From the NCBI GenBank assembly GCA_001798595.1, contig MGSS01000144.1, forward strand, positions 14,032-78,031: a stretch of 64,000 bases of DNA, given 5' to 3'. The first letter of the stretch is position 1. Each line of letters opens with the position of its first letter. A model generated the notes under the pieces. That model saw nothing but the letters and a program-made list of their open reading frames with translations. It did not search any database and was not told the origin of the DNA. The translations under genes were made by a program, and so were the position numbers. The DNA is from Deltaproteobacteria bacterium RIFCSPLOWO2_12_FULL_60_19. Lineage in GTDB: Bacteria; Desulfobacterota; Binatia; UBA9968. Of this stretch, positions 5,960 to 41,170 are shown in pieces.

Positions 5960-6098
5960 GGCCGGATGTCGATTGCTGATAGTCGGGTCCTGTGCAAGGC
6001 GGTCCCGCAAATCCCGTCAGGTCCGGAAGGAAGCAGCGGTAGCGGATCTACCCCTGTGCCACGGGGCAGCCCGGCTGTCAGCAATGGGCATCCTGTCC
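5960..6098 (+). ncRNA. ffs: SRP RNA (4.5S/ffs); ends approximate
   Basis: Contains the universally conserved domain IV motif GUCAGGUCCGGAAGGAAGCAGC (6015-6036). The flanking arms 5964-5982 and 6075-6093 are complementary (helix 5). Its location immediately upstream of dnaX matches the conserved ffs-dnaX-ybaB-recR synteny. A TTGATT-17-TAGTCT promoter-like pair lies at ~5911-5940. Confidence 0.6.
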
Positions 6099-6196: not shown

Positions 6197-7897
6197 ATGT
6201 CTTACCAAGTCATCGCCCGTAAATGGCGGCCGCAGTGTTTCGACGAGATCGTCGGCCAGGGCCACATCACCCGCGTCCTGCGCAACGCCATCCGCGGGGG
6301 CCGCATCGCGCACGCCTATCTTTTTACCGGCGTGCGCGGGGTGGGTAAGACCACGGCCGCGCGCATTCTCGCCAAGGCGCTCAATTGCGAGAAGGGGCCG
6401 ACCGCGGAGCCTTGCGGCGAGTGCGTTCAGTGCGTCGAGATCAAACAGGGCAACTCGATCGACGTCTACGAGATCGACGGGGCCTCGAACCGCGGCATCG
6501 ACGAGGTGCGCCAGATCATCGAGAACGTCCGCTACCAGCCCGCCAAGAGCCGCTTTAAAATCTACATCATCGACGAAGTGCACCAGGTTACGCGGGATGC
6601 CTTTAACGCGCTGTTGAAAACGCTCGAAGAGCCGCCGCCGTTCGTCAAATTCATTCTGGCGACCACCGAGCCGCAACGCCTTCCCGATACCATCCTGTCG
6701 CGCTGCCAACGCTTCGACTTCCGCCGTATCGCGGTGAGGGAGATCGTCGAGCGGCTGAAAAAGATCGCCGAAGCGGAATCGCTGCAAATTACAGATGGGG
6801 CACTCTTGCTGCTCGCGCGGGAGGCGGAAGGGAGCATGAGGGACGCGCAGTCGCTGCTGGAGCAGCTTCTGGCCTATGCCGGGTCCGAGGGCGAGAGCGA
6901 GGTCGGCAAGGCGGCGATCGACGAGCGGCGGTTGGAGGAGTTGCTGGGGATCGCGGAGCGGCGCGCGCTCTACGAGATCTCCCATGCCGTGATCCAGCGG
7001 GACGCCAAGCGATGCGTCGAGCTGGTGGCGGAGGTTATGAATCAGGGGCGTGACGTAACGCGCCTGTCACGCGACCTGGTGGAGCACTTTCGCAACCTGC
7101 TGATGGTCCGGCTGATACAAGACCGGGCGGCGGGAAGCGAAGAGCGCGGTCATCTCCTGGACCTCTCCGACCAGGAGATCGAGGAGCTGGGTCAACAGGG
7201 GAGCGCGCTTTCGGTCGACGCCTTGCTCGACTATTTCAAATTCATGGCCCAGGGCGACGAGGATACGGCGCGCTCCGCCTATCCGCGCTTTGCGCTCGAG
7301 GCGACGCTGATCCGGCTGGCGACGTTGCCGGAGACGATGCCGGTCGAAGAGGCGCTGGAGCGGCTGGAGGCGCTGGAAAGAAAGCTTGGCGGCGGCGCGG
7401 CGCCAAGATCCGCGCCTGCGGCGGAAAAGCCGCCGCCGGTCGTCAAAGCGGCAAGCGAGACCCGCCTTTCGGGCCACGGGCAGGCCGCAACGCCGGCGCC
7501 CGCGGCTACCGTGGCGGGCGAGTCGTCGCAAACCTGGAAGAGGTTCGTCGCCTTCGTCACGAAAGAGCGACGCATGCTGGCGGTGCATCTGGAGCAGGCC
7601 CAACTGCTGTCGCTGGCGCCAGGGCAGATGAGGCTCGGTGTGGAAGAAGGCCACCAGTTGAAATATCTCCAGGACGGGGAGCAGTTGTCGGCGCTGAAAG
7701 AGTTTGCGTGCCGCTTCTTCTCCGTCGAAACGGCGGTGTCGTTGACTGCGGTGCCGGCGAGAAGCCGGCAGAGCGAGGTTGAGAATTTGAACGTGTCGAA
7801 GGCGCCGAAAGTAGAAGAGGGGAACATGACCGACCTCGAGCGCGAAGCGATGCGTATTTTCGGCGGCTCGATGATTCAGGTGAAGAAGGAGCAGTAG
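6197..7897 (+). CDS. dnaX: DNA polymerase III subunits gamma/tau
   Basis: Walker A GVRGVGKTT, zinc module CGECVQC, and a clamp-loader AAA+ core. Confidence 0.9.
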   Translation: MSYQVIARKWRPQCFDEIVGQGHITRVLRNAIRGGRIAHAYLFTGVRGVGKTTAARILAKALNCEKGPTAEPCGECVQCVEIKQGNSIDVYEIDGASNRGIDEVRQIIENVRYQPAKSRFKIYIIDEVHQVTRDAFNALLKTLEEPPPFVKFILATTEPQRLPDTILSRCQRFDFRRIAVREIVERLKKIAEAESLQITDGALLLLAREAEGSMRDAQSLLEQLLAYAGSEGESEVGKAAIDERRLEELLGIAERRALYEISHAVIQRDAKRCVELVAEVMNQGRDVTRLSRDLVEHFRNLLMVRLIQDRAAGSEERGHLLDLSDQEIEELGQQGSALSVDALLDYFKFMAQGDEDTARSAYPRFALEATLIRLATLPETMPVEEALERLEALERKLGGGAAPRSAPAAEKPPPVVKAASETRLSGHGQAATPAPAATVAGESSQTWKRFVAFVTKERRMLAVHLEQAQLLSLAPGQMRLGVEEGHQLKYLQDGEQLSALKEFACRFFSVETAVSLTAVPARSRQSEVENLNVSKAPKVEEGNMTDLEREAMRIFGGSMIQVKKEQ

Positions 7898-21667: not shown

Positions 21668-21920
21668 AGGATCAATTCTTACGCTGCTTAGGTTCGAGGA
21701 TCAAGAAGGGAGCGATTCTGTTTTTCTGGAAAAGCTAGGTTCGTCACTCCCGCAAAAGCGGAAGGCCAGGTCGTAAGACTCTGGATTCCCGTTTCAGCCT
21801 CAGGCTGATCCGTCCGAAGCCCAGTGGCGGATCCACGGGAATGACAGTTAAAGTGCAAACTTCGCGACCGCGTCCAATGAACAAGTCTCGAACGGTATAT
21901 CGGAGAAGGGAAAGGGCTGC

Positions 21921-31816: not shown

Positions 31817-32737
31817 AGGGGTCAGGTCTTGCTTCTTGTATCAGGCCTGTTTGCCAACCGGCTTACGGTAGCGTAGTGCAGGTCCAGAACATCCGCGACG
31901 TCACTCTGGCTGTACCCGTAACGATGCACCGCACGGACAACCAGGGCGTCTCGCCTGGCCTTGGTTAGCTTCCCTTCAAACAGGCTCTTGAGTGTCGGCC
32001 GGCTTAAGTATCTCTGGCTCCTAGGAATCTCTGTGACGGCCTCGTAACCTTTTACATACCCCCTGAGCCTCTCTACAAAGTCCTCTTCCCCCAACAATAC
32101 CTGGGCTTGCATCTTCTCCCAGATCGACGGCCGATCGATCCCTTCTCTGACAAATCGACGGTAGTGTCTAGCGGCCGAGTATCTTCTCTTACCAAACTGA
32201 CTCAACACCCAATCGACGGAGAGCCACGGGAGGTGCTTTTCCAGCCCTGCTGTAGCCCCGTAACTGCTCCACTTCCATTGCTCGACTCTCTTTACGGCCT
32301 TGGCCCTGACGGGGTTTAGCGCCACGTAGCGACAGACTTCCAAAAGGTGGCTGTCTTTTTGTATCAGCACGGCCTTGTAGCGGCCTTGAAACAGATGCCC
32401 TACCGTTCGGTGGCGTCGATTATAGAGTTGGGTGTAGACGCCGTTGAGCTGGCGCATCCCCTTGGAGAGATTAGCCTCCGGTGTTTCAATCACCAGGTGA
32501 TAGTGGTTATCCATCAGACAGTAGGCGTGGCAGAGCCAGTTAAAGCGGTTGACGACCTTGCCCAGGACCTCCAGGAAGGCTTTGCGGTCCCCATCGTCAT
32601 CGAAGATGTCCTCTCGGGCGTTGCCCCGGGAGGTCACATGGTAGACCGCACCGTCAAATTCCACTCGGAGAGGACGAGCCATGATTCACGGAACTATCAA
32701 GATAAGCCATCGATAGCAAGAAACAAGACCTGACCCC
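31817..32737. mobile_element. Second REPtron-like unit: Y1 transposase gene bracketed by 21-bp inverted repeats GGGGTCAGGTCTTG(C/T)TTCTTG
   Basis: The left repeat (31817-31837) and right repeat (32717-32737, reverse complement) have 1 mismatch. They share the GGGGTCAG core with the first unit. Confidence 0.55.
31822..32682 (-). CDS. IS200-like/REP-associated tyrosine (Y1) transposase paralogue
   Basis: HUH motif DNHYHLV and catalytic Tyr region GRYKAVLIQKDSHLLEVCRYVALNP. It is 286 aa. Confidence 0.8.
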   Translation of the reverse strand: MARPLRVEFDGAVYHVTSRGNAREDIFDDDGDRKAFLEVLGKVVNRFNWLCHAYCLMDNHYHLVIETPEANLSKGMRQLNGVYTQLYNRRHRTVGHLFQGRYKAVLIQKDSHLLEVCRYVALNPVRAKAVKRVEQWKWSSYGATAGLEKHLPWLSVDWVLSQFGKRRYSAARHYRRFVREGIDRPSIWEKMQAQVLLGEEDFVERLRGYVKGYEAVTEIPRSQRYLSRPTLKSLFEGKLTKARRDALVVRAVHRYGYSQSDVADVLDLHYATVSRLANRPDTRSKT

Positions 32738-32838: not shown

Positions 32839-34983
32839 CTACGGCAGCGTTGAGTTGTAGAGCTGCCCGTCATCAACGGCAGAGCTACCCGGTTTCATGC
32901 TCTTCGGCACACTCACCTCGACCGATCCGGCGCAGCTTCCGCCCTGGCCGTCGTCTGCCGTGAAGCCAACGCGATAGACCCGGCCGTTGCTATTGCCGGA
33001 GCGCTCCGCCCTGAGCAGCACGGTGCTTCCCTGGATTACTGCATCCGGGCTGGTGTCGCCGTCGCCCAGACCGTTCACCCGCTCATCCTGGGTTACGCCT
33101 GTTATGGTGATTGTCACGCCGTCATTGTTCGGATCGCTGACGCCTACGATCCCGACCGACACCAGCTTGTGGTTCGGCGGCCAGAGCCGCGATGGACTAG
33201 CCTGCGCAAGTTGGCAGATCGGAGGATCATTGACGTTCTGAACGGTAATGCTGACCCACTCATCGGGCTCGCCAGCCGCAGGATTGTTGCTCAACTGACC
33301 GTCGCTTACGCTAAGTTTAAACACCAGCGTATCCCCGCCGGGTCCCACCGGAGGCGCTGTGAAGCTAGGCGTCGCTGTGTCAGCCCCAGTTAGAGTCACC
33401 AGTGTCCCGCCGGTTTGTACCCAGCTGTATGTAATCGCATCCCCGTCCGGGTCGCTGCTGGCGGTACCATTCAGTGTCACCAGCGCCCCTTCGTCCTTCG
33501 TCTGGTCAGCACCGGCGTTAGCGACGGGCGCATGGTTTACCTGCTCGACGGTTACCTGGACCGTATCCGTGTCGAAGAGATAGCCGTCGGAGACAGTCAA
33601 CTCGAAGGTCAAAATCTCGAACCCGCCGACACCGCCGGGAATGAGCGGGGCCGTGAAGCTAGGCGTTGCAGTGTCGGGCCCAGTGAGAGTTACCAGCGTC
33701 CCGCCGGTTTGCACCCAGCTGTACGTGATAGCATCGAGATCCGGGTCGAAGCTGGCGCTGCCGTCGAGCATTACCGGCGCATCCTCGTTGACCGTTTGGT
33801 CACCGCCGGCATGCGCCTCCGGCGCGAGATTCACATTACCGACGGGGATTCCGTTCGCATCAGTCAGCACCCAGACGTCGTTCAGGGCGAAGAACTCAGC
33901 TCCAGAGCAACCGCCGCTGCAGCTGCGTCCTGCGAACATGACCATCCGGTTCGTCGCCGGGTTATAGACGGCGGTAGGGGAGCTTCGCCCGCGGGGTGGC
34001 CCGCCGGTGGGAAAAAGCTGCGTCCAATTTGGGGTACCTCCTAGTCCGTTGGCAACCTCAAGGACCCACACATCGTTAAGATTGCCCGCAACGTTTCGGT
34101 CGCCACCGAAGACCGTCATCCGGTTCGTCGCCTGGTCGTAAACCGCCGTGTGCATCGAGCGCGAGGGAGGGGGCCCACCGGTGGGGAAAAGCTGGGTCCA
34201 GGTGGGCGACCCCAATCCGTTGGCGTTCTGCAACACCCAGACATCGTCGGACGGACACGGCCCCCCGTCTACGCACCCCGAAAACACGATCATCCTGTTG
34301 TTTGTCGCATCATAGACCGCTATGTGTTCCGACCTTGCAGACGGCGGCCCGCCGGTGGGGAAAAGCTGGGTCCAGGTGGGCGACCCCAATCCGTTGGCGT
34401 TCTGCAACACCCAGACAGCGTTACTGTTGGCGCTGCAAGCGTTGCTCCTGCCGCCGAAGACGACCATGCGGTTCATAGCGGCATCGTAGACGGCCGTGGG
34501 TCCTTGACGAAGGTTGGGTGGCCCACCGGTGGGGCTGAGTTGCGACCAATTGGGCGTTCCGCCTGTCCCATCGGCGTTGGTAAGTACCCAGACATCATTG
34601 ACCGCACCAAAACAAGAACCAATGTTGGGATCTCCGGCAAACACAATCATGCGGTTGTTCACCACATCGTACACAGCACTATGGTAGCCCCGGGCACTTG
34701 GTGGCCCGCCAGTGGGGAAAAGCTGCGTCCAGGTGGGCGTCCCTCCCAATCCGTCGGCATTGGTCAGCACCCAGACATCGTTGAACAGAGGGTGCCCTGT
34801 AATCACTCCAGGGCCATTCATTCCCCCGAACACGATCATACGGTTATTGGTCGAGTTGAAGACCGCGGTATGGAGAACCCTTACGCCTGGTGGGCCGCCG
34901 ATCGGGCTAAGCTGCGTCCATGTCTGCGCCGCCGCCTGGCCGACCAGGGCGAAGACGAGAAGAAGGATTACCCCCCCCCCCAA
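32839..34983 (-). CDS. Secreted multi-domain protein: N-terminal Kelch-type beta-propeller (6-7 blades) plus two C-terminal PKD/Ig-like domains
   Basis: Repeated TW(T/S)QL..GGPP..R..H.AVYD...NRMIVFGG blades, then a duplicated D.DGD.ITYSWVQTGGTLVTLTG module. In the sequence as given, the TTG start sits inside a G11 tract. An in-frame ATG plus signal peptide is reached only with a G10 tract (see findings). Confidence 0.7.
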   Translation of the reverse strand: MGGGVILLLVFALVGQAAAQTWTQLSPIGGPPGVRVLHTAVFNSTNNRMIVFGGMNGPGVITGHPLFNDVWVLTNADGLGGTPTWTQLFPTGGPPSARGYHSAVYDVVNNRMIVFAGDPNIGSCFGAVNDVWVLTNADGTGGTPNWSQLSPTGGPPNLRQGPTAVYDAAMNRMVVFGGRSNACSANSNAVWVLQNANGLGSPTWTQLFPTGGPPSARSEHIAVYDATNNRMIVFSGCVDGGPCPSDDVWVLQNANGLGSPTWTQLFPTGGPPPSRSMHTAVYDQATNRMTVFGGDRNVAGNLNDVWVLEVANGLGGTPNWTQLFPTGGPPRGRSSPTAVYNPATNRMVMFAGRSCSGGCSGAEFFALNDVWVLTDANGIPVGNVNLAPEAHAGGDQTVNEDAPVMLDGSASFDPDLDAITYSWVQTGGTLVTLTGPDTATPSFTAPLIPGGVGGFEILTFELTVSDGYLFDTDTVQVTVEQVNHAPVANAGADQTKDEGALVTLNGTASSDPDGDAITYSWVQTGGTLVTLTGADTATPSFTAPPVGPGGDTLVFKLSVSDGQLSNNPAAGEPDEWVSITVQNVNDPPICQLAQASPSRLWPPNHKLVSVGIVGVSDPNNDGVTITITGVTQDERVNGLGDGDTSPDAVIQGSTVLLRAERSGNSNGRVYRVGFTADDGQGGSCAGSVEVSVPKSMKPGSSAVDDGQLYNSTLP
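34971..34981. repeat. Homopolymeric tract C11 (G11 on the coding strand) at the 5' end of the Kelch/PKD gene
   Basis: Direct reading: 11 consecutive C residues. Confidence 0.9.
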
Positions 34984-35049
34984 GTAACGGTTTGAACATT
35001 CGGCTTGTGTTTTTCATGACGCTGCTGTCCTTTCCGCCCATTTTAGGCA

Positions 35050-36162
35050 ATGGCAGATAACTATGAGGTGCCCCGCTCTAGCAGTGGGCAAAGAGGTTGT
35101 CAAGTTCTTAGTCGGGATTTTTTTCCTGGCTTGATCTGGCGGATTTTTGATGTTATCGGGAACGACGTGCGGATCGATATTGAATTCAATTCCGGCGCGC
35201 AACTCCCTATGGACGCGATTCCGGAGCTGGCGCGGTTGGCGGAAGAGCATGGCTTTGGCTGCGCGTGGGGCGGAGAGGCGAATAATAAAGATCCGACGGT
35301 GATGTTGTCGGCCATTGCCGCGGTCACCAGGCGCCTTCAGGTCGGATCGGCGGTCTATCACATTCTCGGCCGGACGCCGGCGACGCTGGCTTTGCAGGCA
35401 GCGGGGCTCGATGAATTGTCCGGCGGTCGATTTCTGCTCGGACTCGGCGTCTCGAATCCGACCATAGCCAGATGGCACGGCGTGCCGAACGATCATCCTC
35501 TCGGCCGCGTCAAAGAGTATCTCGATATCGTGCGACTGGCGATGAGCGGCGAGAAGCTCAATTTTGAGGGCAAATATTTCTCGTCGCAGGCGTTCAAGAT
35601 GGCCTTCAAGCCGTCGGGCAGGAAGGTTCCGATCTACCTCGCGGCCTTCGGCCCGAAGATGAGCCGGTTGGCGGGCGCGGCGACCGACGGCGTCATGATC
35701 AACATGGCCAATCCGGGAGAGATGCGCCGCATCGTGGAAGATGTCCGGCAGGGCGCCGATGAGGCCGGCAAAAACTTCAAGGAACTGGAAATCATCTGCA
35801 AGATACGCTGTTCCGTGGCGAAGGACTATGCCACCGCGCGCGAGGCGCTGAGCCACGCGCTGACTTACTATGCGCTGGCCGACTATTATCGTGTTCTTTT
35901 GACGCGGATGGGATTCGGCGCCGAGGTCGAGGCGATGCGCGCGGCGTGGCACTCCGGCGGCTTTCACGCGGCGAGGGCTCTGGTTTCGGACCGGCTGTTC
36001 GCCGGCCTGCCGCTGGTGCCCGCGACCTCCGTGGAAGAGATCAAGGAAAAGATCGAGCCGTATCGGGACGCCGGTGCGACGCGGATTATTCTCCCGTACG
36101 TGGCGTCGTCGGGAGAAACCGAGATGGTCGACGAGTTGAGAGAGTTTATCAACGCGTGGTGA
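35050..36162 (+). CDS. LLM-class (luciferase-like) flavin/F420-dependent oxidoreductase
   Basis: TIM-barrel LLM signatures (RIDIEFNSG...ELARLAEEHGFGCAWGGE...GLGVSNP). The start is uncertain; a GTG at 35167 is an alternative. Confidence 0.75.
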   Translation: MADNYEVPRSSSGQRGCQVLSRDFFPGLIWRIFDVIGNDVRIDIEFNSGAQLPMDAIPELARLAEEHGFGCAWGGEANNKDPTVMLSAIAAVTRRLQVGSAVYHILGRTPATLALQAAGLDELSGGRFLLGLGVSNPTIARWHGVPNDHPLGRVKEYLDIVRLAMSGEKLNFEGKYFSSQAFKMAFKPSGRKVPIYLAAFGPKMSRLAGAATDGVMINMANPGEMRRIVEDVRQGADEAGKNFKELEIICKIRCSVAKDYATAREALSHALTYYALADYYRVLLTRMGFGAEVEAMRAAWHSGGFHAARALVSDRLFAGLPLVPATSVEEIKEKIEPYRDAGATRIILPYVASSGETEMVDELREFINAW

Positions 36163-36190
36163 AGCAGCGGGTTGAATCGTGTACCGTGCC

Positions 36191-36267
36191 GTCATTCCGG
36201 CCAAGCTCGCGGTAGCGGGCGCGAGCCGGAACCCAGAAAGACTGGATTCCCGCTTTCGCGGGAAAGA
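36191..36267 (+). repeat. Structured ~80-nt intergenic repeat, copy A, ending in terminator-like hairpin TTCCCGC-tttc-GCGGGAA
   Basis: GTCATTCCGGCCAA...GAGCCGGAA(C/T)CCAG...CTGGATTCCCGCTTTCGCGGGA. Lies just downstream of the LLM gene stop. Confidence 0.6.
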
Positions 36268-36300
36268 CGCAAGGAGCAGAGCGTCAATTGAGAGGTTGCT

Positions 36301-36702
36301 ATGCCGTTTGAGTTGCTGAATCCGCAGGGATTGGAAAAACCGGTCGGTTATGCGCATGTCGCAAAGATCACGGGCGGGAAAATCGTTTACGTCGCTGGGC
36401 AGGCGCCGTTCGATGCCGATGGAGCGGTGGTGGGGAAGGGCGATTTTGCCCGCCAGTTTCGTCAGGTCATACACAATCTGAAGCTCGCGGTCGAGGGCGT
36501 GGGCGGGAGGCCGAATCAGTTTGCCGTGCTGACCATGTACTTGACCGACCTTCCGGCCTATCTTGCCGCCAAGAAAGAAATCGGCGCCGCCTATCGCGAA
36601 GTCTTCGGCAAATATTTCCCGGCGATCACGCTCGTCGAGGTCAAGAGCCTCTATCATGCGGACTGTATGGTCGAGATCTCGGGCGTCGCGGTAATTGACT
36701 AG
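36301..36702 (+). CDS. ridA: RidA/YjgF family reactive-intermediate deaminase
   Basis: 133 aa with a YjgF/chorismate-mutase-like fold pattern (GKIVYVAGQ...TMYLTDL...AITLVEV). Confidence 0.85.
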   Translation: MPFELLNPQGLEKPVGYAHVAKITGGKIVYVAGQAPFDADGAVVGKGDFARQFRQVIHNLKLAVEGVGGRPNQFAVLTMYLTDLPAYLAAKKEIGAAYREVFGKYFPAITLVEVKSLYHADCMVEISGVAVID

Positions 36703-36735
36703 CAGGCCGTTTCTAAATCCGTGAAATTTTTTGAA

Positions 36736-36825
36736 CGTCATTCCGGCCAACCCCCGCGATAGCGGGGGGCGAGCCGGAATCCAGGGAATTTCGGGAGTAC
36801 TGGATTCCCGCTTTCGCGGGAGTGA
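36736..36825 (+). repeat. Structured intergenic repeat, copy B, with the same terminal hairpin, immediately followed by the group II intron 5' end
   Basis: Shares the 14-nt 5' end, GAGCCGGAAyCCAG, and the 3' 24-nt hairpin with copy A. The central inner hairpin differs (CCCCCGC-gata-GCGGGGG). Confidence 0.6.
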
Positions 36826-38671
36826 GTGCGCCCGTGAAGGCGCCACATCAGCATGGTGAAAGTCCATGCCGGAGTATGCCACAGCTCCGTAGCCGAAGGT
36901 AACTGCGTCGCCCCTAGGCGAGGTGGGGAGCAACCGGAGGCGAACTGTCGGTCCGTAGGAGGACGAACTCGATTCGGCGGGGAGCTGCGACGAGCCTGCT
37001 CATTCATGGCGAAGTCCGAAAGTCGCTGGACACGCTGGCGTGGTGGGTGAAGCGATGTTCAGGCAGCCCACGTGGTTGGAGACGGAACGACGGGAAGGTG
37101 TGGTGCAGTAAGCGGGGAGACCTGCACGGTAGGTGAGCGGTGCAGGAGTCAGAGTCTCCATAGTACCGATGCGGGGCAACCTGCGAGAGGTGCGGGAAGC
37201 AAAACCGCGCTGAGGGAAGGGAGATAGGAAGGTGGAAGCGTGAGCGACACAACGGGGCAAAGCGAAAGCGAAGCGTCGGTAGTGCCCGAAGGGGCTACAC
37301 AAGGCGCAGAGACCCAGGGCCGAGATTGGTCGTGGGTGGAAGCCGAGGTGTGGAGCGAGCGCATGTTGGCGGCGCTGGAGAACGGCGTCAAAGGAGGCAA
37401 ATGGTTTAGCCTGATCGACAAGGTCTATCGTCCGGCAACGCTTGAGGCGGCGTGGCGCAAGGTAGCCGCGAACGCGGGAGCAGCCGGAGTAGACGGGCAA
37501 AGTGTTGAGCAGTTTGCGGCGCGAGCGGAAACGTATCTCGAAGAACTGGGAGAAGCGCTCAAGACGGGGAGCTACAAGCCGCTGGCCGTGCGGCGCGTGG
37601 AGATTCCGAAGGGGCAGGGAAAGCTGCGTCCCCTGGGGATTCCGGCGGTCAAAGACCGCATCGTGCAAACGGCGTTGAAGCTTGTGATCGAGCCGATCTT
37701 TGAGCGTGAGTTCCTGGACATGAGCTACGGTTTTCGTCCGGGTCGTGGCTGCAAAGACGCTTTGCGAGAAGTGGACCGGCTGCTCAGAGGAGGTTACACC
37801 CGCGTGGTGGACGCCGATCTTTCGAGCTACTTCGACACGATTCCTCACGCGCGTCTGATGGAGCGGGTGGGGGAGCGCGTGAGCGATGGCCGGTTGCTTC
37901 AGTTGATCGCAGCGTTTCTGCAACAAGACATCGTCAAGGGACTGGAGAGGTGGACGCCCGTAGGGGGCACGCCGCAAGGCGCGGTGATCAGCCCCTTGTT
38001 GGCGAACATCTACCTTCACTCGCTGGACTGTCATATGCGGGAACGCGGTTATCGGATGGTGCGCTACGCTGATGACTTCGTGGTGCTGTGCCGCAGCGCC
38101 GAACAGGCGCAAGCGGCACTTGCCGAGGTAAAAGCCTGGGTAGAAGCAAATGGCCTGAGTCTCAATGCCGACAAGACCCATGTGGGTGACTGCCGGGAAC
38201 CGGGCCAGGGCTTTGAATTTCTGGGCTATCGCTTCGAGGCGGGGCGGCGTTGGGTACGGCGCAAGAGCATCAGAGCGCTGCGTGACCGTATCCGGGCCAA
38301 GACCAGTCGCACACGGGGAGACAGTCTGCGTCATATGATTGCGGACTTGAACCCGCTGCTCAAGGGCTGGTTCGGCTACTTCAAGCATGCTCATCCGATG
38401 ACCTTTAGCGGGATGGACGGCTTTACTCGCAGACGGCTGAGGGCGGTCCTGCGCAAGCAGGAGAAACGCCCTGGCCTGGGTCGGTGTCTGGCCGATCATC
38501 TTAGGTGGTCCAAAGTTTTCTTTGCCGACTTGGGACTCTTCACCATGACGGAGGCCCATGCACTGGCAAGCCGATCCCGATGAGGAAACCACCGACTGGA
38601 GAGCCGTGTGCGGGAGAACCGCACGCACGGTTCGGAGGGCGGGGAGAGCGAAAGCTCTTCCCGACCCCTAT
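36826..38671 (+). mobile_element. Bacterial class C (IIC) group II intron, full length (~1.85 kb)
   Basis: 5' end GTGCGCC (36826). The IEP ORF sits in domain IV. Domain V GAGCCGTGTGCGGGAGAACCGCACGCACGGTTC (38603-38635). Domain VI has a bulged A (CCGACCCC). The 3' end is ...CTAT (38671). It is inserted directly after a hairpin, as IIC introns do. Confidence 0.75.
37240..38583 (+). CDS. Group II intron-encoded reverse transcriptase/maturase (no endonuclease domain)
   Basis: RT blocks including YADDFVV, plus an X/maturase domain. It is 447 aa and lacks an HNH/En C-terminus, consistent with class C. Confidence 0.9.
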   Translation: MSDTTGQSESEASVVPEGATQGAETQGRDWSWVEAEVWSERMLAALENGVKGGKWFSLIDKVYRPATLEAAWRKVAANAGAAGVDGQSVEQFAARAETYLEELGEALKTGSYKPLAVRRVEIPKGQGKLRPLGIPAVKDRIVQTALKLVIEPIFEREFLDMSYGFRPGRGCKDALREVDRLLRGGYTRVVDADLSSYFDTIPHARLMERVGERVSDGRLLQLIAAFLQQDIVKGLERWTPVGGTPQGAVISPLLANIYLHSLDCHMRERGYRMVRYADDFVVLCRSAEQAQAALAEVKAWVEANGLSLNADKTHVGDCREPGQGFEFLGYRFEAGRRWVRRKSIRALRDRIRAKTSRTRGDSLRHMIADLNPLLKGWFGYFKHAHPMTFSGMDGFTRRRLRAVLRKQEKRPGLGRCLADHLRWSKVFFADLGLFTMTEAHALASRSR

Positions 38672-39135
38672 CGACGGAGCGCGTACCTCTATCCTTAAAT
38701 CCAGATCGAACCTGCGCGAGGTGACACTCAACCGTCAGGTTTCCGGCGTCGCAGCGGACATTTTTGACTCCATTCTGGGTAAAATCATCCCAAATTACGG
38801 CAGTGGATGTCCAAACCGGGTACTCGTTTCCGCCTATTTACCAAGGCCCTTCTCGGTATTTCGCCTAGTTAGGAGTTTGGCATCGGGTTTGCTTCAAACC
38901 ACACTCATGGACCAACTGCAAACTTTGAGGAAATCTCCGGCGCTCGACGGGTTTGAAACTCCGACCCTGGATGAGATCGTCTGCCTTTGGCAGGCGTTCC
39001 GTTCCAATGGCTTGGAGGCTGAGGAAGCTTGGAATGCAATCGTCGCGGGGTTGGCCCTGGAAGTGGCTTTTCCGCGGCGGCCCGGTGTAACCCGGATCGA
39101 GCACTAAGCAGGCGGCAAGCGAAACCAAGAACGTC

Positions 39136-40137
39136 TTACGGTTTGTAGACCTTGTCGATAAAGCCGCTCTTCTCCAACTCCCGCACAATACTGTCGTCCA
39201 CGATGTCATCCAGTTTCAGGCTGGCGCCCGGCTTGCGCGCCAAAGCTTCCTGAATCTGCGCTTCCATTCCGGGCCGCGTCACCAGCGGCACTCGATCATA
39301 GAGCTTGGCCATCGCGTTGTAGGAGCTCTCCAGGTAGCCTTCGTTGGTTATCCGGCTGTTTTTTGCAATGCTCTTTTTGCTCTCTTCTTTGTGGGTCTTA
39401 AAGAAGTGGGCAGCTTCGATCAGCGCCATCACGCCCTTGCGCACCGTCTCCCGATTCTTGGCGAGATAGCCTTTCGTTGTATTCACACAGATATACGGGA
39501 AGTCAAAACGTTTCTTAAAGTCCGCCGTGCTGGTAAGAATCCTGTGCGGCATGCCCTTCGCCAATTGGATCATCCCCGGCGGAGATGGAAAGCCGACGAT
39601 TCTACCGGTGCGGAAAGCGGCGGCTCTCTCCGGAGCGCCGCCGACCTGGAGAATCGGAACGTCCTTGATCGGTTCCAGGCCGAGGCCCCTGATGAGCGCG
39701 TGAGCCGCCGTGTCCGAGGCGCTTCCGACGCGGCTGATCCCGATGCTTTTTCCTTTTAGATCTTCAGCCGATTTGACGGACTCTTGGACTACAAGCTCAT
39801 AAGGAAGGGTATTGATATAGCAGGCGACCGTAACCAGGCTGACTCCTCCCACGGCGGCGCTTGCCACACCTCCGCCTGAGGCATTGGCTATCTCGATATC
39901 GCCGGCAAGAAGGCTGGCCACACTGATCGTCGTAGTCTGGATAAAGACAAGGTTCACGTCGAGGCCGTGCTTTTTGTAGAAACCATAGTCCTGCGCTACA
40001 TAGTAGATCGCGTTGGTGGTGTCGAGGGAACTATAGGAGATTTTGATCTTGTCTTGGCCATGCGCGGGGTTCAATCCAAAAAGCGCCAAAACAAAAATCT
40101 GGCTTGCGATCAGTAAAGTCCTGCACCAGCTTTTCAT
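39136..40137 (-). CDS. Orphan NMT1/THI5-like (nitrate/sulfonate/taurine/HMP-type) ABC substrate-binding protein
   Basis: The start is set at MKSWCRTLLIASQIFVLALFGLNPAHG (signal peptide). No transporter genes are adjacent. Confidence 0.65.
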   Translation of the reverse strand: MKSWCRTLLIASQIFVLALFGLNPAHGQDKIKISYSSLDTTNAIYYVAQDYGFYKKHGLDVNLVFIQTTTISVASLLAGDIEIANASGGGVASAAVGGVSLVTVACYINTLPYELVVQESVKSAEDLKGKSIGISRVGSASDTAAHALIRGLGLEPIKDVPILQVGGAPERAAAFRTGRIVGFPSPPGMIQLAKGMPHRILTSTADFKKRFDFPYICVNTTKGYLAKNRETVRKGVMALIEAAHFFKTHKEESKKSIAKNSRITNEGYLESSYNAMAKLYDRVPLVTRPGMEAQIQEALARKPGASLKLDDIVDDSIVRELEKSGFIDKVYKP

Positions 40138-40177
40138 CGTTTCACCTCTTCGTTTTTTCGGCCCGGGATCGGGCATG

Positions 40178-40666
40178 TTAGGTCTGCTCGGCCTGCGGGT
40201 CGGCCCGGGCGACAAGATCGAGCAAGGTGTCGGTGTGAGGATGCTGCGAGGCCGCGACCTCTCTCAGCAGTTCGGCGAACTCCGGCTTCTCCTCGCTCAG
40301 CAGCATCGCCTGGTCAAAAAGGCTGCTCTCCAAGGCTTTCTGATCCTGCAAATCATGCACGACCCGCTCCCAGTGATTTCGCGCCGATCTTCCCTCGCGC
40401 GCGGGCTCGTCAACAGCTGTTTCCAACCTGGCGATGCTCTCCCGCAGGCGGCCGGCGCTGGCGCGCTTTTCCGCCGCCATCTGACGCAGGCGCGCGGCGA
40501 CCTGAGGATAGGGCGCCTTCTCGGCGTGGTCGTCCAACTGCTTTGCCAGGACGCATAAGCGATGATAACTGTTCTTCAGCAGGTCGATCGGGTCCGATCG
40601 CTGAGTTTCACCGTTTTGCCGGCTGCACCCGGAGAGCGGACAAATCCGTTTCAAAAATTCGAACAT
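40178..40666 (-). CDS. Hypothetical protein, 162 aa, helical and charged
   Basis: Intact ORF with reasonable codon usage; no recognisable motif. Confidence 0.35.
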   Translation of the reverse strand: MFEFLKRICPLSGCSRQNGETQRSDPIDLLKNSYHRLCVLAKQLDDHAEKAPYPQVAARLRQMAAEKRASAGRLRESIARLETAVDEPAREGRSARNHWERVVHDLQDQKALESSLFDQAMLLSEEKPEFAELLREVAASQHPHTDTLLDLVARADPQAEQT

Positions 40667-40789
40667 CCGATCTACCTCTGCGGTGGAAGATAGAGTGGCG
40701 TAAGGAGCTTGTCAAGCCTATGGCTTAGCGCGCGCGCGTTTGACTGTCAGTGGAAAATCTGGTGAAATAACCGGCGGTGAGGTGAATGT

Positions 40790-40993
40790 ATGGCCCGTAT
40801 CACCGTGGAAGATTGTCTCGCAAAAATTCCCAACCGTTTTGAGCTGGTCGGGATCGCCTCCAGGAGGGCGAGGCAGCTGTTCAAAGGCGCCAAGCCGCTG
40901 ATCGAGTGCGATAACCGGGAGGTGGTCGTGGCGCTTCGAGAGATCGCCGAAGGACAAGTGCGAAAAGTCTCCAAGGAACTTAAGCCCGTATAG
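40790..40993 (+). CDS. rpoZ: RNA polymerase subunit omega
   Basis: [30 protein letters not shown] is the canonical RpoZ N-terminus. Confidence 0.85.
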
Positions 40994-41170
40994 TCTCCGC
41001 TTCTCTATTTTTCCCGCACAATTCCGAACCGTTATCTTTTTCTCGGCATCTGTCAGCCTGAGGCTCTCATTGCTTGAAACGGGCGGTGAAACCGGGTAAA
41101 TTTCCCTATATCGAGGTCGGTTCCTCCTTCTGTGGCGCAGCCCGTCTAAGGCGGCTGCAGAGAGCATCCC

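Follow-up and report, generated by a model that had tools for sequence, protein, structure and literature searches.

Group IIC introns were defined as small group II introns in which the distal stem of domain V is 2 bp shorter than in IIA and IIB introns and CGC replaces AGC; an epsilon′ bulge, the exon-binding site EBS3, an EBS1 of 3–4 bp, the absence of an EBS2, and a stem-loop in the 5′ exon complete the definition (Toor et al, 2006; PMC1702495). In the same work, an 11-nt bulge with an AGGAA motif was described as unique to IIC. Two further introns, D.p.I1 and one from Alteromonas, are assigned to a group called g6 (PMC4244168). Here, we describe a group II intron in a 64,000-nt stretch of DNA, hereafter the window, from Deltaproteobacteria bacterium RIFCSPLOWO2_12_FULL_60_19 (contig MGSS01000144.1, positions 14,032–78,031). 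Comparative sequence analysis indicates that it is likely a functional, recently mobile retroelement that shares IIC-like targeting but is not a canonical class C member, and that is part of an extensive environmental clade, probably sister to class C plus g6. A preliminary description, made from the sequence letters, had presented it as an intact class C intron positioned one nucleotide after a terminator-like hairpin; its account of the intron and the encoded protein stands, while the class assignment, the distance, and the terminator have to be revised.

Scanning the whole window at Rfam gathering thresholds returned Intron_gpII (RF00029, domains V–VI) at 38599–38671 with 58.9 bits and group-II-D1D4-3 (RF02001) at 36907–37106 with 34.1 bits (cut-off 32). 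As stated in the preliminary description, the intron starts with GTGCG at 36826; it ends with ...ACCCCTAT at 38671, and homologous ends were recovered in 61 related introns. An empty allele was located via contigs encoding an identical RidA protein. In this contig (L092, from another sample), ridA is directly followed by a convergent NMT1-like gene and the intron is missing: window positions 35000–36825 align to L092 13–1838 with 98.7% identity, and 38672–41000 align to L092 1839–4167 with 99.4% identity. Exactly 36826–38671 is thus absent, which proves the intron boundaries; the empty site reads ...CTGGATTCCCGTTTTCGCGGGAATGA/CGACGGAGCG (here and below, the slash marks the insertion point). 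Filled alleles of the ridA locus are present in two other contigs (L089 and L091, 99.6–99.9% identical to the window). In addition, a 1958-nt contig from a fourth sample (L097) carries an intron that is 99.8% identical and encodes an identical protein within different flanks (...GTCACTCCCGCGGACGCGGGAGTCCAG-14 nt-CTGGATTCCCGTTTTCACGGGAATGA, intron, then CGGATAG). That the population contains the ridA locus both with and without the intron, as well as a second site, therefore provides direct evidence of recent mobility, going beyond the full-length and potentially mobile element proposed before. Within the 64-kb window the intron is present once, and a search of metagenome contigs with an exact 20-mer spanning the exon junction gave eight matches, all unrelated chance hits and none an empty site. 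A further contig, L090 (sample SAMN03842440), departs from the window inside domain V at 6316–6326, where a run of 10 Ns leads to unrelated genes. We considered it as a variant intron copy and rejected this, as the divergence is a scaffold gap of Ns; scaffolding at a repeated element probably produced this join artificially. Another hairpin copy resembling repetitive extragenic palindromes (REPs) follows the gap.

The only long open reading frame (ORF) inside the intron encodes a protein with the Pfam domains RVT_1 (2.9e-40) and GIIM (6.1e-15) and no other domain. The Pfam scan found no HNH/endonuclease (D/En) domain in its 447 residues, which agrees with the earlier reading of a reverse transcriptase (RT)/maturase devoid of endonuclease; the YADDFVV motif noted there is present, and all catalytic motifs are intact. 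The best match in the PDB is the GsI-IIC RT (2e-65), followed by the E.r. RT (4.8e-63), both ahead of the IIB protein T.el4h and the IIA protein LtrA. Matches to retron, DRT, and UG RTs are no better than E = 1e-10. An identical protein has been deposited as OGQ78449.1 (“group II intron reverse transcriptase/maturase”) from a groundwater-type “Deltaproteobacteria bacterium” metagenome-assembled genome (MAG).

The RNA folds into a group II architecture. RNAalifold on 33 relatives yielded 87 pairs for domains I–III, 67 of them with compensatory changes. The epsilon′ bulge in domain I occupies unpaired 5′-strand alignment columns between pairs 150–300 and 163–299, and its family consensus, AGGAUGACGAA, retains four of the five bases of the AGGAA motif. 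Domains V and VI together form 23 pairs that are 99.5% paired in 51 sequences, eight of them with compensatory changes; none of 500 shuffles was as good, and no register shift of the domain V/VI alignment approached the observed pairing. Domain V contributes 13 pairs (99.8% paired, four with compensatory changes). All 51 aligned relatives have the 4-bp distal stem, the 5-nt loop, and the AGC triad, with a distal hairpin of 13 nt, never 10 nt; the loop is GAAAA in half of them. In domain VI, 10 pairs were counted (99% paired, four compensatory), and the pair just above the bulge switches from C-G to A-U. This covariation supports the bulged branch-point A proposed in the preliminary description, which leaves 7 nt to the 3′ splice site.

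Features of the intron and its flanking repeats (window coordinates)
Feature	Position	Strand	Description
Complete group II intron	36826..38671	+	1846 nt, of which 502 nt non-ORF; defined by Rfam matches, empty allele, and homologous ends
Intron-encoded protein, RT + maturase (X)	37240..38583	+	447 aa, GTG start, ribosome-binding site GGAAGGTGG upstream
Epsilon′ bulge, domain I	36957..36967	+	11 nt, AGGAGGACGAA; unpaired columns 151–162
EBS1 (UCAUUC)	37000..37005	+	Hairpin loop of domain ID; from mutual-information scan
IBS1 (GAGTGA)	36820..36825	+	Overlaps the last 2 nt of the hairpin stem
EBS3 (G)	37075	+	Intron position 250; pairs with C38672
IBS3 (C)	38672	+	First base of the 3′ exon
Domain V	38601..38633	+	33 nt; AGC triad 38602–38604, 4-bp distal stem, loop GAGAA, AC bulge
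Domain VI	38637..38667	+	3-bp basal helix, bulged branch-point A 38664, 10-bp upper helix, GAAA loop
Target hairpin TCCCGC-TTTC-GCGGGA	36806..36821	+	Perfect stem 36806–36811/36816–36821, loop TTTC
REPIN-like double-hairpin repeat in the 5′ exon	36736..36825	+	Left hairpin ~36741–36779, right hairpin 36806–36821
Second double-hairpin repeat, unoccupied	36190..36270	+	Just upstream of ridA
Third repeat copy, decayed	21742..21797	+	Right hairpin gone; from repeat/pattern searches

We refer to the window intron and its protein relatives as the window-intron family. A scan of one genome per species gave more than 570 loci, of which the best 80 were kept (54–77% protein identity); these reside in Proteobacteria, Desulfobacterota, Acidobacteria, Planctomycetes, Verrucomicrobia, Chlamydiota, and others. 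Several copies can share a genome: Desulfosarcina alkanivorans PL12 has four (L002–L005). At least 8000 relatives fall below E = 1e-30 in the protein database. Using the 5′ and 3′ parts of the window intron as nhmmer queries, we delimited 61 full-length introns, all of which start with GTGCG or GTACG and nearly all of which end with ACCCCTAT, a few showing single-base variants.

Exon recognition was derived from these 61 introns by an unbiased mutual-information scan of exon positions against all domain I alignment columns. Exon positions −1 to −5 pair with intron positions 175–179 in 97, 93, 93, 92, and 89% of the introns, respectively, and position −6 pairs partially with position 180 (67%); in the window intron, all six EBS1 and intron-binding site 1 (IBS1) positions are paired. 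EBS3 and IBS3 pair in every intron (C-G in 53, A-T in five, T-A in two, and G-T in one). For exon positions −7 to −16, the scan of the related introns found no covarying intron partner, as would be expected if EBS2 were missing. Instead, a hairpin takes the IBS2 position of the 5′ exon in the window-intron family. Scoring contiguous stems of at least 5 bp that end 1–7 nt before the splice site, we found such a hairpin at 81% of 59 non-redundant sites, as compared to 18% of 1198 control windows from the same loci (folding energy, Mann–Whitney p = 8e-20). Since EBS2 appears to be lacking and hairpins are enriched, the targeting mode is IIC-like. The corresponding part of the preliminary description, insertion guided by a stem-loop instead of long exon-binding sequences, is therefore upheld, yet the recognised stem-loop is not a terminator: a T-run (at least four Ts) accompanies only two of the 59 sites and is absent from the other 57.

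What the intron prefers in the source genome is not a Rho-independent terminator but a hairpin that forms the right arm of a REPIN-like double-hairpin repeat. The target hairpin itself folds with −7 kcal/mol (z = −3.0), and a pattern search found exact copies only at 36247 and 36805. Its stem ends 4 nt before the intron (GTGA; 3 nt with the outer T.G pair included) rather than the 1 nt initially described. After the stem, the sequence continues as GTGACGACGG, without a T-run, and a scan for Rho-independent terminators over 35900–39300 returned no site. Given these two results and the fact that the hairpin is half of a double-hairpin repeat, it is not a terminator. The preliminary description was right that the intron lies downstream of ridA in the same orientation, but not that this reflects terminator targeting.

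The repeat measures ~85–90 nt and, as judged from its sequence and predicted fold, is organised as a REPIN: two inversely oriented REP-like palindromes, GTCAYTCCNGC...GCNGGARTCCAG and CTGGATTCCCGC-TTTC-GCGGGARTGAC, are separated by a 14- to 15-nt spacer. Like REP/REPIN sequences, it consists of short, extragenic, imperfect palindromes that are multicopy and occur as inverted doublets. The copy in the 5′ exon is supported by repeat families D1, D6, and D7, inverted repeats I11 and I18, and a DNA fold of z = −3.9; as single-stranded DNA, the double-hairpin repeat forms two hairpins (z −3.9 to −5.3). In uninterrupted copies, the ends (C)GTC...GAC(G) pair with each other. The intron lies within the right terminal repeat, at GGGARTGA/CG, and the repeat resumes 3′ of it at 38672 with CG(AC); in the empty allele it is uninterrupted. 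In L097, the intron interrupts another copy of this repeat, again at ...GGGAATGA/CG. The census comprises three copies in the window (two intact doublets around ridA and one decayed), one in L097, and one in L090. At 36264–36270, within the unoccupied copy, the would-be IBS1, GAAAGA, mismatches EBS1 at position −3, where A replaces T. A cognate RAYT, a Y1 transposase with REPs on its flanks, would be a further REPIN trait; as a possible candidate, a Y1_Tnp-family ORF (IS200/RAYT-like, 286 aa, HUH motif NHYHLV) lies at 31822–32682 on the minus strand, ~4 kb from the REPIN-like repeats; repeat and pattern searches of the window revealed no repeat copy adjoining it.

The palindrome recurs in other genomes. 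In the form (CTGG)ATTCCCGC-NNNN-GCGGGAAT(GAC), it adjoins related introns in L007, L008, L013, L016, L018, L033, L051, L090, and L097, in MAGs assigned to Sulfuricella, Rhodocyclaceae, Alphaproteobacteria, Methylobacter, and Deltaproteobacteria. As these groups are very different, the palindrome represents a cross-phylum REP-like family. The ATTCCCGC..GCGGGAAT motif hosts nine of the 59 sites, in different phyla. In L013 and L030, the introns are inserted in the opposite orientation of the motif and EBS1 is changed accordingly, with GAUUCC facing GGAATC. Translated on the minus strand, the palindrome gives a spurious “FPRKRESS” peptide, which occurs twice in an artefactual long ORF at 35014–36933. 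In a Desulfatiglandales MAG (OY759599.1; L043:2505–6310), two related introns lie in direct tandem, the second beginning at the base that follows the first. The upstream copy has U as EBS3, and its “IBS3” is the initial G of the resident intron (G.U pair); the hairpin and IBS1 (GGAACG) in the 5′ exon are those of the shared site. This arrangement points to a further insertion at a site that already held an intron.

To place the intron among the known classes, we compared it with the published class consensus sequences (Abebe et al, 2013; PMC4028801, Fig S1), of which the class C consensus follows a >50% rule. The general hallmarks of group II introns are all present, namely a six-domain ribozyme with a GUGYG start, a conserved domain V, and in domain VI a bulged A 7–8 nt from the 3′ end, and an ORF in domain IV with RT and X domains. 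Among IIC features, the intron shows the lack of EBS2 combined with a stem-loop, the EBS3–IBS3 pair, and the 11-nt epsilon′ bulge; it departs from IIC in its 5–6 bp EBS1 (3–4 bp in IIC) and in its domain V, which has a 4-bp stem, a 5-nt loop, and AGC instead of the shortened form with CGC. The class C 5′ end is GUnyGCCnrGCAUGG; the window intron begins with GUGCGCCCGUGAAGG, without GCAUGG, and deviates from the class C boundary consensus. Its domain V, GAGCCGUGUGCGG-GAGAA-CCGCACGCACGGUUC, conforms to the class F/E consensus (rAGCCGnrUGCGG-GAAAA-CCGCAyGynCGGUUy) and not to that of class C (CCGCCGUrUrCG-GAnC-CGyAyGynnGGUGG). From J5/6 through domain VI to the 3′ end, it reads GGAGGGCGGGG...CCG-A-CCCCUAU, where class C has UGUGrGrGG...CCU-A-CyC-GAU and class F has GAyGAGGGrGrr...A-CyCU-AC. 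By this sequence comparison, domain V, domain VI, and the boundaries are of E/F type, not class C type. Thus, the near-consensus domain V reported initially does fit the general Rfam model, and the same trait is atypical for class C. A further feature of class F/E, an IIB-like domain I with covarying EBS2–IBS2, was not found. CGC versus AGC was considered as a test for class C and rejected as decisive, as AGC also occurs in the g6 IIC intron from Alteromonas (L105); for the other g6 intron, D.p.I1 (L098), the reading covered the 3′ strand of domain V, which ends with GGUUC as in L105 and agrees with it.

Plasmid-borne introns served as a calibration set. The canonical class C introns from P. 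aeruginosa (L110) and Citrobacter (L111) have a class C domain V, a class C 5′ end, and terminator targets with T-runs. The g6 introns likewise target terminators with T-runs, start with GUUUGCCC..., and reach 54–71 bits with D1D4-3; L105 has a short domain V with AGC. F-like or unclassified introns (Ni.ha.I1 of g3, here L106; Rh.sp.I1, here L108; L099, L101, L103, and L104) match D1D4-4 at 77–104 bits, and no upstream hairpin was found for Ni.ha.I1 and Rh.sp.I1. Members of the window-intron family score 33–34 bits with D1D4-3 and do not match D1D4-4.

The window protein is 35–43% identical to each of the labelled representatives compared, drawn from class C, g6, the F-like/unclassified groups, g1, and CL. 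In a neighbour-joining tree (29 sequences, 389 columns, 500 bootstraps), the window-intron family, the class C core, and g6 are each recovered with 100% support, and class C plus g6 excludes the window-intron family at 95%. The classification that the preliminary description had called for hence places the protein outside class C plus g6. A clade of the window-intron family, the Sulfobacillus intron L102, and class C plus g6 has 75% support, and one of the family, L102, and the F-like introns has 13%. L102 (560–2500, plasmid pY0017 of Sulfobacillus thermotolerans), the nearest single outgroup, has F-type domains V and VI and a larger ribozyme of ~680 nt. It sits after a perfect 6-bp palindrome, CGGCCG-TGTGA-CGGCCG, located 7 nt upstream, and a candidate EBS1, GUGGG, pairs with CUCAC (5 bp); hairpin targeting may therefore extend beyond the window-intron family. 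We also considered whether the family corresponds to Toro's g3 (D.a.I1/Ni.ha.I1) and rejected this: Ni.ha.I1 groups with L104 and L103, hits D1D4-4, lacks a hairpin, and is 38–40% identical. A literature search found no published class label for the Cupriavidus or Rhodoferax family members. Overall, the window intron probably represents a separate lineage beside class C plus g6, and probably their sister, in which IIC targeting and an IIC-type domain I would occur together with a longer EBS1 and a domain V of E/F type that is not reduced. Existing catalogues may already list this lineage, perhaps within class C or as “unclassified”.

Three other explanations have to be weighed against this. 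The intron could be an ordinary bacterial class C member, with the differences in domain V and EBS1 reflecting variation within the class. Its best solved-structure matches are all IIC RTs, its domain I hits the same Rfam model as the g6 IIC introns, and it shares with class C the 11-nt epsilon′ bulge, EBS3, the apparent lack of EBS2, the upstream hairpin, and a compact 502-nt ribozyme; moreover, the AGC triad is found in L105 and, by its 3′ strand, in L098, and a consensus built on a >50% rule leaves room for deviation. Yet the 13-nt distal hairpin of domain V (4 bp plus pentaloop) is invariant in 51 of 51 members and never takes the 10-nt form, GGAGGG...A-CCCCUAU misfits UGUGrGrGG...A-CyC-GAU, and the 5′ end is devoid of GCAUGG. 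The protein is 36–38% identical to those of class C, which are 47–59% identical among themselves, the family never falls inside class C plus g6 in the tree, and T-runs are absent from nearly all sites. We thus regard membership in class C as unlikely. A class F-derived or unclassified IIB-like intron (F, g1–g5) that retrohomes by a long EBS1 plus EBS2, with hairpins being incidental, is much less probable still. In its favour, nearly every base of domain V and of the start of domain VI agrees with the class F consensus, the unclassified Rh.sp.I1 has an almost identical domain V and 3′ end, EBS1 has the 5–6 bp seen in IIB-like introns, and L102, the nearest single outgroup, shows F-type domains V and VI. 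The two groups nevertheless separate by their domain I models, hairpins are strongly enriched in the window-intron family and were not found at Ni.ha.I1 and Rh.sp.I1, EBS2 covariation is lacking, and the clade that would unite the family with L102 and the F-like introns has the lowest bootstrap value given above. Finally, the presence of a single copy in the window would be compatible with an immobile relic, or with a non-intron RT (retron, diversity-generating retroelement, or defence RT) that is intergenic by chance. The GIIM domain, a complete ribozyme supported by covariation, intact catalytic motifs, the distant matches to retron, DRT, and UG RTs, the precise empty allele, and the second near-identical insertion make this explanation hardly credible.

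Several points also weigh against the favoured reading of a mobile, IIC-like lineage beside class C. The absence of EBS2 is deduced from a lack of covariation at fixed offsets. The domain I match to the IIC-type Rfam model exceeds its threshold only marginally. The neighbour-joining tree is crude and sparsely sampled: it includes just six class C/g6 representatives and no sequences of classes D, E, A, B, and ML, supports the sister placement at no more than 75%, and leaves the family's exact position with respect to the F-like groups uncertain. In principle, the presence/absence pattern at ridA could reflect precise loss rather than gain.

Starting from the anatomy, boundaries, covarying pairings, hairpin association, lack of an endonuclease, insertion polymorphism, and second site observed here, published IIC biology (PMC1702495, PMC4424553, PMC7161350) suggests how the element would move; splicing, the lariat, the single-stranded target, and priming at replication are taken from this analogy. 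The intron would be transcribed by read-through from ridA, because both are on the same strand with no terminator between them, and its RNA would fold into a compact ribozyme. Splicing assisted by the RT/maturase would release a lariat ribonucleoprotein (RNP) and leave the ligated exons ...GGGAGTGA/CGACGG. The RNP would then reverse-splice into single-stranded DNA directly 3′ of a GC-rich stem-loop, reading its target in three ways: the shape of the stem-loop would replace the missing EBS2–IBS2 interaction, EBS1 and IBS1 would form 5–6 bp overlapping the stem base (UCAUUC with GARTGA), and EBS3 and IBS3 would add a single pair (G with C). As the protein has no endonuclease, cDNA synthesis would presumably start from a strand of the replication fork as its primer.

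The element is a variant of a well-known kind of retroelement, and its importance is moderate. With filled, empty, and second sites in one population, it offers a clear case, from nature, of group II intron mobility in progress. The family further indicates that hairpin-guided, IIC-like targeting is not limited to class C and g6 and requires no terminator T-run; members of this lineage mostly target GC-rich REP-like palindromes, and their EBS1 is longer and matched to the repeat. That an IIC-type domain I occurs together with an E/F-type domain V, on a protein branch beside class C, bears on the debate of whether IIC introns are primitive or reduced. More tentatively, the family could be a large, unnamed, endonuclease-less lineage in Proteobacteria, Desulfobacterota, Acidobacteria, Planctomycetes, Verrucomicrobia, and Chlamydiota, sister to class C plus g6 and an evolutionary intermediate, with sub-lineages whose EBS1 has specialised on a cross-phylum REP/REPIN hairpin; we put this forward as a possibility that is somewhat less likely to hold than to fail. 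If true, the IIC targeting mode arose before the reduction of domain V, and the IIC architecture is derived, not ancestral; likewise, one selfish element would be using another as a landing pad via the ATTCCCGC..GCGGGAAT hairpin. Developers of IIC-type RTs or targetrons may also take an interest in the element, as a compact intron with its own RT that seems active and whose target is structurally simple.

Some observations concern other features of the window and of related loci. The window encodes a bacterial small signal recognition particle RNA at 5981–6079 (+, 72.8 bits) and a tRNA with a long variable arm at 1307–1396 (+, 58.4 bits). At 32839–34983 on the minus strand lies a gene for a 714-aa protein with Kelch/beta-propeller repeats followed by PKD-like repeats; the version in L091 has 732 aa and is 18 aa longer. 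In a Holophagales MAG, the Rfam sRNA Acido-Lenti-1 (L075:4639–4685, minus strand; 39.8 bits, gathering 37) maps ~210 nt downstream of the 3′ end of a related intron.

Among the known systems closest to the window intron are the class C introns (such as B.h.I1, O.i.I1, GsI-IIC, E.r., and our L110 and L111). The window intron and class C both have an endonuclease-less RT/maturase, a compact ribozyme, the 11-nt epsilon′ bulge, and EBS1 plus EBS3 without EBS2, and both insert a few nucleotides after a stem-loop, in sense orientation downstream of a gene, with relaxed sequence specificity and at many different sites across genomes. They differ in domain V (33 nt with a 4-bp distal stem and pentaloop, as compared to 30 nt with a 3-bp stem and tetraloop), in the number of nucleotides after the branch A (7 and 6, respectively), in the consensus of the 5′ end, J5/6, domain VI, and the 3′ end, and in the length of EBS1 (5–6 and 3–4 bp). 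Unlike those of class C, the targets of the family are GC-rich palindromes without a T-run, and its protein, at the low identity given above, lies outside the class C clade. The g6 introns (D.p.I1, Al.ma.I1, and relatives; Toro & Nisa-Martinez, 2014; PMC4244168) provide a precedent for IIC-type RNA and targeting associated with a protein outside the monophyletic class C, and they share the AGC triad; in contrast to the window intron, they have a short class C domain V, a GUUUGCCCrGC... 5′ end, classical terminator targets with T-runs, and D1D4-3 scores of 54–71 bits instead of 33–34. The class F/unclassified endonuclease-less introns (Ni.ha.I1 of g3, Rh.sp.I1, and Pe.th.I2) have in common with it the domain V sequence, the 5-nt loop, the GAGGG start of domain VI, and an EBS1 of at least 5 bp, whereas they differ by an IIB-like domain I (D1D4-4), covarying EBS2–IBS2, ribozymes of ~590–700 nt, and specific targets such as insertion sequence (IS) elements without an upstream hairpin. 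Finally, IS110- and IS3-family elements target Pseudomonas REPs, and two of the nine group II introns in P. putida KT2440 are REP-associated (PMC1525189). These REP/REPIN-targeting elements resemble the window intron in using multicopy extragenic palindromes as safe and abundant landing sites. The mode of recognition is different: the REP-targeting IS elements rely on their transposase, whereas the window intron would read its site by ribozyme base pairing and hairpin shape.

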